Of a DNA stretch of 64,000 nucleotides, positions 36,101-50,640 are shown one piece after another. This DNA is from Octopus vulgaris (Eukaryota): the NCBI GenBank assembly GCA_951406725.2, contig OX597839.1, positions 28,396,001 to 28,460,000 on the forward strand. Reading direction: 5' to 3'. Each line of letters opens with the position of its first letter. Position 1 is the stretch's first letter. A program made the position numbers and the translations under genes. The notes below the pieces were generated by a model, which saw only the letters and a list, made by a program, of their open reading frames with translations, was not told where the DNA came from and ran no database searches.

Positions 36101-39100
36101 TATATATATATATATATTATGAGGGAATATTATTCCAAACTTACAGGGAAAAATTCAATTTAGAAATACTAAATCAAATTTCTCAAAATAAAATATATGT
36201 ATATATAAATTAGAAAAACCTTACTTTTTATCAATTTTTTCTTGGTTTTTATATATGATTTACATATATATATATATATATATATATATATATATATATA
36301 TGCACACATGTGTGTGTGTATGTAAGGTACTATCCAGGTTGCATATACTGTATCATACCTTGATACTGTGTGGACTAAGATCCTCATTGACAGGTCCCTG
36401 ATATTTAAGATAAAGTCTTGACACTTAAGGTATGCTAATTAGTTACTCCAGTTTTCTGTAGCCACTGTAATTGTTGAATAAACAGACTGACCGCTTGTTT
36501 CTTTGGAATTGGTCAAATTGATGGAGACACCTCTGATAAGAATCCCAAAAGATTCCAAAATCAACTGAGGTTGTTGGCTGTTTTTGTTTTTCAATCTATG
36601 CAGAAACAGCTAAATTTACCCTGTATATAAAGGTATTATACAGGTTACACACACACACACACACACACACACACACATATATGATAATAGTTTGGTTCAA
36701 CTCCACTTTACTTAAAGTTTCATGGGTGCACAGGACAAGTCCATCTCATCAGATGCTAGAAGGAGAGTGGGAGTTTTGTGAGATATTTAAGATGGTTTCT
36801 ACGTCTTTATACCTCTGTTTGGTCAGCTCAGATCAAGTGGAATTAATGCTATCAAAGCAACACCTGCTATTTTCAGCTCAACAAAGACCGTGTATTTCAC
36901 CAGCTTACCAGATCTGGTCGACCCGTCCAACCTATGCCAGCATAGACAATGGACGTCAAATGATGATGATGATGATGATGATAAAGATGATGATGATGAT
37001 ATATGTCTGTATGAGAATATATATATATGCATGCATATATATGTGTGTGTGTATATATTTATGTATATATGTATGAATCAGCCGAAATTGCGAGGATAAT
37101 CTGGTGCTTGACTGAGGATAGAAAACTTTGAATGACCCGTCCTTGTTTTCTTTGTATCGTCTATCTGGATGTTTTGTTGTCCCTTTATTGTATCACCTAG
37201 CTGTCCAGATGTTTTGCGTTCTTGTCTCATTTTGTATTTTATGTGTATATATATGTGTGTGTGTCTGTGTATATGTATAGATATGTACAAATATATATAT
37301 ATATATACATTTATATATAATATGATGTTGATATTGTTGGGATTCTATTCATATTAGGGTTCATTTTTAATCTAAATAACATCATTTATACTTTTATTAT
37401 CATTATTATTATTATTATTATTATTATTATTATTCAAAATCATATTGGTATCATATTCCTTTTTTATCGCTGATATCATTAACGCTTATCTCTTTTCTAT
37501 TCTGCTAAAGCTGCCTCTTTCTGCATATATATATATATATATATATATATATGTAAAAGAAAGGGACCTGCCTTATCAAGCCTTTTGTTTTACTAACGTT
37601 TCAATTAATAATTTTTTTCTAAAAAAGAGGGAAATAATAATAATGATAATAATAATGATGATGATAATTTATTGTTGTTGTTATCACTGTTATCATCATC
37701 ATCATTATTATTATTATTATTACCATTATATAATCTGCTTTATTTTTCTAGCGGCTGGCATCTTTCTTATCCATGTTATATATTTTCTCCTTCTTGTTGT
37801 TATTGTTGTTTTTCAGTATTTTTTTTTTATAATTATTTTCTTCAAATTTCTTAATTATATCTAAAAACAAACAAAAAAAAACCCACACACACAACATCAA
37901 TACCAAAATGTCACTGCAACAGCAGTAACAACAACAACAACAACAATAGCTGCAGCATTAACCACGACAAAAACAGCTTATATACAGTGGTTGGAATGAA
38001 TATATATATATGTGTATATATATATATATATATATATATATATATATATATAAGAAATTATTAAGATTTGGTTGAATTAGGTTTAATTTGAGGCACCGAG
38101 TCAGTCAAGTATTATTAACATAGCTCAAAGTAAGGTGAATAAAATCAAAATAAGTAACAGGATGCCAAGTATTAGTGCAATATGACCATTTCAAGTCGCT
38201 CCATTTAATTGAACAATGCAAGCATTATGTCAATTTAAATACAGCGCTATCTTCAGTTGCTAGAAATATGGATTTCTGTTTGTTGAAAATCCATATATCT
38301 TGCAACTGAAGATAGTGCTGTATTTAAATTGACGTAATGCTTGCACTGTTCAATTAAATGGAGTGACTTGAAATGGTCATATTGCACTAATACTTGATAT
38401 CCTATTACTTATTTTGATTTTATATATATGTATCAATTCAATTTGCATATGAACTGTTTAGTTTGCTTTATAAAGCTCTTCTGCAGGCATCCGCTATCAT
38501 GTGCAGTCTCTCAATGAAAATGATCGTATTATTGAAGATATATCTACACATTCATGAATATCCATAGAGGATATATAAAAAGCGTAAGCAAGAGTGATTG
38601 GATTAAGCAGACACATTTTAATGCATATCACAACAATTGTTTCTTCTTCACTTTATCAGCAGACAGTTACCAAGATATTATCACATAATAGTATTATACT
38701 TCTGGGTTCAGTCTCACTGTGTGGCACCTTGGGCAAGTCTCTTCTACTATAGCGTCAGGCCGACCAAAGCCTTGTGAGTGGATTTGGTAGACAGAAACTG
38801 AAAAAAGCCCATCATATATATAATATATATGTATATGTATATATGTATGTATACGTATATATTTTTGTCTGTGTTTGTCCCCCGCCACCATCGCTTGACA
38901 ACCAATGCTGGTGTGTTTACGTCCCTGTAACTAAGTGGTTTGGCAGAACGGACCGATAGAATAAGTACTAGGCTTACTAAGAATAAGTCATGGAATCGAT
39001 TTGTTCGACTAAAGACAGTGCTCCAGCATGACTGAAACAGAATAAAAGAATATAATGTATTAAGTGCTCGAGATGACCCATCCCCCCACAGCAGAGGTGT

Positions 39101-50640: not shown

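Follow-up and report, generated by a model that had tools for sequence, protein, structure and literature searches.

We find that the inverted repeats in a 64-kb stretch of Octopus vulgaris DNA (the window, which is the whole evidence base of this study) are, with a probability of about 0.85, 5′-truncated 3′ ends (pseudo-LTRs, pLTRs) of Penelope-like elements (PLEs) from at least four families that carry hammerheads, inserted as head-to-head inverted pairs. Each of the eight foldbacks in the window, numbered F1 to F8 along the plus strand, consists of a 5′-truncated copy joined head-to-head to its inverted counterpart, and in the five that carry hammerheads both of these read outward.

The window is animal DNA rich in A+T and in microsatellites, and one exon within it is a 100% match to O. 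vulgaris septin-2-like X2. Exons were placed by tblastn, using O. vulgaris septin-2-like X2 and the O. bimaculoides isoform as queries. Within the 64 kb this gave a septin gene on the plus strand from 6080 to 50643, with nine exons (6080-6166, 10113-10235, 11157-11294, 13424-13541, 15624-15725, about 19008-19104, 19637-19690, about 21955-22058 and 50563-50641) and one 42-nt cassette exon (31090-31131). Septin residues 1-38 and 339-367, and the first and last coding exons, were not found by tblastn within the window, and we infer that the entire window lies inside the septin transcription unit with the plus strand as sense. The cassette is present in the O. bimaculoides X1 protein and missing from O. 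vulgaris X2. A frame just downstream of it has no Pfam match and is presumably similar to the terminal part of a REL-type non-LTR retrotransposon ORF. Among the other repeats seen, a tandem 18-bp repeat at 19926-20200, noticed as periodic translations, lies between two septin exons, and inverted repeats 81% alike at 58484-59179 surround a frame with no Pfam match at E<=0.01, which we take to resemble a mariner transposase N-terminus.

A sequence-only reading of this DNA had reported five inverted repeats (8132-9248, 16900-17352, 38139-38423, 46984-47146 and 48273-48705). All of these were confirmed, and the analysis added three others, at 21025 (F3), 57066 (F7) and 59558 (F8). The three focal foldbacks, F4, F5 and F6, share one intron, which runs from the cassette to the exon at 50563. 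The arms of F4 (38139-38275 and 38287-38423) differ by 6.6% substitutions. Its left arm (minus strand, family B) has a core that is intact on the minus strand (38256-38181) and carries a tail of about 36 nt (38103-38138, minus), common to the solo copy at 13086. The right arm (plus strand) is tailless and contains a minimal hammerhead at 38306-38381, with CUGAAGA, a long helix II, GAAA, a self-complementary helix III and an AUA triplet. The F4 hairpin folds at -201 kcal/mol (z=-31), a value equalled by none of 200 shuffles.

F5 has a tailless left arm (46984-47062, minus) with a mutated core (CCGACGA at 47048) and a right arm (47066-47146, plus; 3.8% substitutions between arms) whose hammerhead at 47080-47110 has an intact core, and in which a one-base insertion leaves a helix II of only 2 bp. 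An unpaired extension, or tail, of 73 nt follows (47147-47219, plus) and leads into (TA)n; the left flank is also (TA)n. The arms of F6 differ by 9.2% substitutions. The left one (48273-48491, minus) is tailless with a mutated core (CUGCUGA), and the right one (48500-48705, plus) carries a hammerhead at 48554-48639 with an intact core, a palindromic helix III and a GUU triplet. It is followed by a 138-nt unpaired extension (48706-48843, plus) and then (TA)n; this is a putative tail, known from a single copy whose boundary between element and host is not fixed.

The description given in the sequence-only reading, of a sense-strand hammerhead preceded by its own reverse complement, is accurate for these three foldbacks, but the secondary examples at 8132 and 16900 have mutated plus-strand cores. 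Its loop of only about 10 nt fits F4 (11 nt, 38276-38286) and F6 (8 nt), but not F5, where the aligned loop is 3 nt with an imperfect centre. Likewise, the unpaired tail is indeed one-sided in all three, but that of F4 is on the upstream arm and points against the gene. The two arms of F4 are 93.5% alike, compared with 73-83% to their solo relatives, and six sites group arm with arm, against two and zero for the alternatives. This pattern of substitutions is consistent with either a single insertion event or later homogenisation.

The remaining foldbacks vary considerably in size. F1 (8078-9248, minus) has 496-nt arms (8132-8627 and 8753-9248) that differ by 1.6% (98.4% alike) and a 54-nt tail at the left, within (TA)n; both of its cores carry A9C, the plus-strand core reading CUGAUGC at 9088. 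F2 (16900-17352, plus), of family A, is bounded by a 12-bp target duplication (16900-16911 and 17341-17352). Its inverted repeat (16908-17047 and 17171-17310) differs by 10%, its 30-nt tail lies at 17311-17340, and its true centre is a 6-nt loop (17146-17151) in a (TTA)n tract; the plus-strand core is mutated (CUGUUGA at 17219) and the minus-strand core (16999) is intact. F3 (20558-21114, minus), also of family A, has a 12-bp target duplication, a 30-nt tail at the left and 30-nt arms that do not reach the hammerhead, and is interrupted by another repeat at about 20620-21018. F7 (57066-57251, minus) has 89-nt arms, an 8-nt loop and an extension at the left, and no hammerhead was picked up in it by the descriptor scan when at most one core deviation was allowed. 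F8 (59564-59985, minus) has 138-nt arms that are 99% alike and an extension at the left; the same scan found no hammerhead in it.

Two families, A and B, have several copies in the window. Family A comprises F2, the short foldback F3 and a solo sense copy at 2527-2699 (plus), which has an intact core (2588-2623) and a broken helix III palindrome, and whose nearest inverted relative is 14 kb off. Family B comprises F4 and two solo copies. One is a sense copy at 13086-13268 (plus) with an intact core (13119-13194), a self-complementary helix III and a tail; a septin exon follows 230 nt downstream, and the closest inverted relative of this copy is 25 kb off. The other is an antisense, tailless copy at 40450-40585 (minus) with an intact core and a perfect helix III palindrome. 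Tailless arms end at one fixed point per family, the F4 right arm and the solo copy at 40450 stopping alike, and tail length is 30 nt in family A (F2 and F3, and similar in the solo copy at 2527) and about 36 nt in family B (F4 and 13086). An exact 12-bp target site duplication (TSD) is present in two of the eight foldbacks (F2 and F3), (TA)n flanks both sides of F1, F5, F6 and F8, and F4 and F7 have no clear TSD. As side observations, microsatellites in or near an element coincide with 5′ truncation or fold points at 2527, 17130-17170, 13086 and 8630-8750. At 12945-13268 two repeat families stand head-to-head over a short (TA)n without being complementary, the partners being the sense solo copy of family B and a minus-strand copy of the repeat family that also occurs at 37075-37240.

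Hammerhead motifs were counted with a descriptor that allows an extra base before GAAA, as a stricter version missed such families. Ten cores without deviation were found on both strands together, whereas 30 dinucleotide shuffles averaged 0.83 and never gave more than four; eight of the ten fall in the repeat families (38306, 47080, 48554 and five others). The other two, at 4542 (minus; in a GAT microsatellite) and 56572 (minus; a U3-A8 variant outside the families found), were set aside as likely chance matches. Minus-strand cores in foldbacks lie at 38256, 47048, 16999 and 8292. The focal plus-strand motifs have the type I pattern, with a CUGANGA / GAAA / NUH core and helices I and II; helix II is weak in two of them, with 3 bp at 38306 and 2 bp at 47080. 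Helix III pairs with itself at 8/8 positions at 38306 and 48554 and at 8/9 at 47080, a short palindrome of the kind that suits dimer cleavage. Judged by this pattern, the motifs are minimal type I hammerheads of the kind described in PLE pseudo-LTRs.

At the Rfam gathering threshold no match was obtained in the whole window, and by E-value there was no hammerhead family among the best 150 of 392 matches, the E-value matches being mostly miRNA models on hairpins and microsatellites. Four motifs (38306-38381, 13119-13194, 40580-40503 and 48554-48639) have a helix II region of 60-75 nt with a U as flanking base on both sides and not G10.1-C11.1; the U/U at the base of helix II is possibly a family-level variant or the result of CpG decay. 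A further family is represented by two solo antisense minimal hammerheads (26192-26219 and 61877-61903, minus), each with one core change and about 70% alike across the aligned region.

In published accounts, PLE insertions are described with an inverted 5′-truncated copy adjoining at the 5′ end, a 30-40 bp tail on one end and a microsatellite bias (PMC8557442), and with head-to-head as the commonest arrangement, TSDs of 8-10 bp and a 31-bp tail (PMC3846280). The octopus foldbacks are further examples of this known insertion product. They share with EN+ PLEs (Penelope/Poseidon, Neptune and Nematis; PMC8557442, PMC3846280) the head-to-head inverted 5′-truncated copy, the tail at one end, the short TSD, the AT-rich or microsatellite target and the hammerhead in the pLTR. 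Unlike EN+ PLEs, the octopus copies are pLTR-sized fragments with no ORF, none in the window being full-length, several families occur in one gene, and some extensions are longer than 40 nt: those of F5, F6 and F8 measure 73 to about 140 nt, more than the 30-40 bp described in the literature, and that of F1 is 54 nt. The minimal hammerheads of PMC4209133, most of which are single truncated copies, share the type I core, the bulged base after A9, the 4-6 bp helix I, the absent or short palindromic helix III and the pairing on opposite strands 100-700 bp apart; unlike them, family B and F6 have a helix II region of about 60-75 nt, carry U where C would precede G12, and lack the usual G10.1-C11.1 pair. 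Naiad PLEs, which occur in Octopus and have no canonical hammerhead (PMC8557442), have an inverted structure, tail and microsatellite bias that would fit F7 and F8.

Non-LTR retrozymes (bioRxiv 10.64898/2026.07.22.740005) also have PLE-related type I hammerheads in non-coding repeats, but their units are arranged head-to-tail in tandem and can assemble into dimeric ribozymes, whereas the octopus copies are paired in inverted orientation and each strand has one hammerhead. Same-strand relatives in the window lie 14-25 kb apart and none are in tandem, and a retrozyme identity was rejected.

Membership of the PLEs rests on non-coding anatomy, because the coding hallmark (RT/GIY-YIG) was not found: Pfam searches gave no such match in 117 element-proximal frames or in the 150 longest other frames (267 of the 719 frames were scanned). 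A profile search with the family A frame returned 230 short unnamed relatives, which shows a widespread repeat and indicates no clade. None of the 150 relatives listed matched an RT/GIY-YIG Pfam family, and no longer proteins holding this frame were found at E<=0.001. Since absence is expected for pLTR-only fragments, the missing RT/endonuclease ORF neither confirms nor excludes a PLE.

By analogy with published PLE work, a PLE endonuclease would nick AT-rich DNA, reverse transcription would start at either of two nearby sites and thereby define the tail, and cDNA synthesis would stop early. The tail has been described as the segment that separates two RT start sites, with both target strands cleaved and extended (PMC11167929). 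The inverted copy would be made in the same event, either by a self-priming foldback or by the joining of two cDNAs primed on opposite target strands, and inserted copies would then decay neutrally. In septin pre-mRNA each copy would form a long hairpin burying a hammerhead that is already near-inactive as a monomer, and this hairpin would, as a side effect, be a probable target of ADAR. Tight loops suit self-priming. The F4 loop extends the tailless arm rather than the tailed one: read in the direction of the tailless arm, 9 of its 11 bases match 13085-13095, upstream of the solo copy; this would be unexpected for a simple snap-back of a tailed cDNA and expected for two-cDNA joining or a later inversion of the loop, a single case that cannot decide between them. 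Many young junctions could help to choose among models of PLE second-strand synthesis.

The upstream arm had been proposed to trap the ribozyme, and folding models bear this out for a foldback that is transcribed: in a transcript ending just past the cleavage site, exposing the hammerhead would cost 65-118 kcal/mol, compared with 1-12.5 kcal/mol in a single arm (an equilibrium model, not kinetics). For the whole foldback the modelled cost is 63-123 kcal/mol versus 1.5-12.6 in one arm, and the minus strand mirrors it at 57-111 kcal/mol. The further proposal, that the foldback is a self-silencing design or an intron filter, is not supported, as the fold is strand-symmetric, is a known PLE insertion product and has solo sense counterparts. 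Because a head-to-head pair reads antisense arm first on both strands, that order is uninformative about the gene, and the tail, which is the sole asymmetry of a foldback, points with the gene in three of the eight. Nor were intact sense cores enriched for an inverted partner as had been suggested (3/5 compared with 2/3 for antisense cores, Fisher p=1, with very small numbers from this window and the cores at 4542 and 56572 left out). Core decay is seen on both strands. At arm mismatches the sense strand would have G-U, which keeps the duplex, at 17 sites and A-C, which breaks it, at 22 (p=0.52), and the mismatches give no sign of selection for a sense duplex. In the focal foldbacks all three plus-strand cores are intact and two of the three minus-strand cores are mutated, a weak hint that runs counter to the neutral reading and is offset by F2. 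Nothing in the window shows that the hairpin shape was selected to silence a ribozyme.

A selective sieve, in which sense intronic hammerheads cut the pre-mRNA and are purged unless trapped by an inverted arm, so that foldbacks are preferentially kept in introns, is improbable. It would draw on the strength of the modelled trapping, on the three intact focal cores with a self-complementary helix III, on the under-representation of tandem retrozymes in Xenopus introns (bioRxiv 10.64898/2026.07.22.740005), and on the possibility of activity in vivo, given that PLE protein can switch a PLE hammerhead on (PMC11167929). Against it, two of the five intact sense copies (cores at 2588 and 13119) are solo, with no inverted partner, and one of these, 230 nt from an exon, has a helix III that pairs with itself completely; three of the eight foldbacks (F3, F7 and F8) have no hammerhead to hide; and arm order says nothing, by symmetry. 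In vitro, a single metazoan PLE hammerhead showed no detectable cleavage and dimers showed little (PMC4209133), and eight of nine Xenopus dimers likewise did not cleave (bioRxiv 10.64898/2026.07.22.740005). The anole motif was cut only with PLE protein, and no RNA-seq reads ended at the site (PMC11167929). Among the papers listed in our literature search, none was found to test whether PLE hammerheads are biased in orientation within introns.

It is very unlikely that the foldbacks are instead MITEs or foldback DNA transposons that hold hammerhead-like words by accident. Such elements are short, non-coding and near-palindromic with TA-rich targets, as here, and F7 and F8 are without a hammerhead. 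However, the tail is asymmetric and lies outside the inverted repeat, single-orientation solo copies of these families occur, 5′ truncation points vary, the TSD is 12 bp, and hammerheads of PLE type are far above chance. MITE-like uniformity of length was not found either, as one family takes the form of a long foldback, a short foldback and a solo arm.

As modelled, foldback arms make good dsRNA if transcribed, and this part of a proposed link between ribozyme retroelements and intronic dsRNA and editing is supported; a connection of Penelope to dsRNA and editing is, however, already published. Octopus is exceptionally rich in near-perfect dsRNA loci and hyper-editing and a lizard Penelope is massively edited (PMC5625713), Penelope is among the most edited repeats in Xenopus tropicalis (PMC10636886), and siRNAs map to inverted Penelope regions in Drosophila (PMC3681739). 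Inverted Penelope sequence is thus a dsRNA source in fly, lizard and frog as it would be here. Among the papers listed in a literature search, we found none attributing octopus editing to PLE foldbacks. To score near-perfect dsRNA we used a gap-free version of the criterion of PMC5625713, an inverted match within about 2 kb, on 12,790 overlapping tiles. At a match of at least 39/40, 233 non-microsatellite tiles qualified, all of them in foldback arms; a further 140 tiles came from microsatellites. Lowering the threshold to 36/40 gave 362 foldback tiles and 21 from other repeats (foldbacks 362/383 of the non-microsatellite tiles), with 500 microsatellite tiles. These shares come from a window picked for its foldbacks, and F1, one young copy, supplies 178 of the 233 tiles. 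Separately, some groups of septin exons are bracketed, across 14-27 kb, by inverted relatives (13086, plus, with 38139 and 40450, minus; 2527, plus, with 16908, minus) that are 74-87% alike and are weak candidates for long-range pairing.

That the hairpins are host-selected RNA structures, kept for their duplex as editing substrates or splicing regulators, is highly improbable. Foldback arms do account for every non-microsatellite near-perfect tile, and F4-F6 lie in the intron following a cassette exon, but G-U is not in excess over A-C on the transcribed strand (17 versus 22), arm divergence of 0.7-10% resembles an age series, and most of the tiles come from the single young copy F1. An origin as long-read foldback or assembly artefacts has a negligible probability: F1 and F8 do have arms 98-99% identical, but most arms differ by 3-10%, two TSDs are exact, and a sequencing foldback is argued against because the arms of all foldbacks differ by 0.7-10% and 39 of the 62 mismatches are transitions.

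Under the PLE reading, the septin-intron hairpins, once transcribed, should form and be edited as a by-product. It is unlikely that foldbacks both protect pre-mRNA, with hammerheads switched on by PLE protein or by trans-dimerisation, and dominate the near-perfect intronic dsRNA behind cephalopod hyper-editing; if that joint reading were true, foldbacks would build up in introns to a density of about one per 8 kb. The protective half alone, in which head-to-head insertion shields octopus pre-mRNA from cleavage, is likewise improbable. The milder half, in which PLE foldbacks would be the dominant source of near-perfect dsRNA in octopus as a by-product, is a tentative possibility, more doubtful than not. 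As found, the foldbacks are an ordinary PLE footprint that is useful for annotation, and the remaining interest lies in their share of the octopus editing substrate; were the share seen in the window to hold across the genome, the main class of substrate for non-coding editing in cephalopods would be identified.
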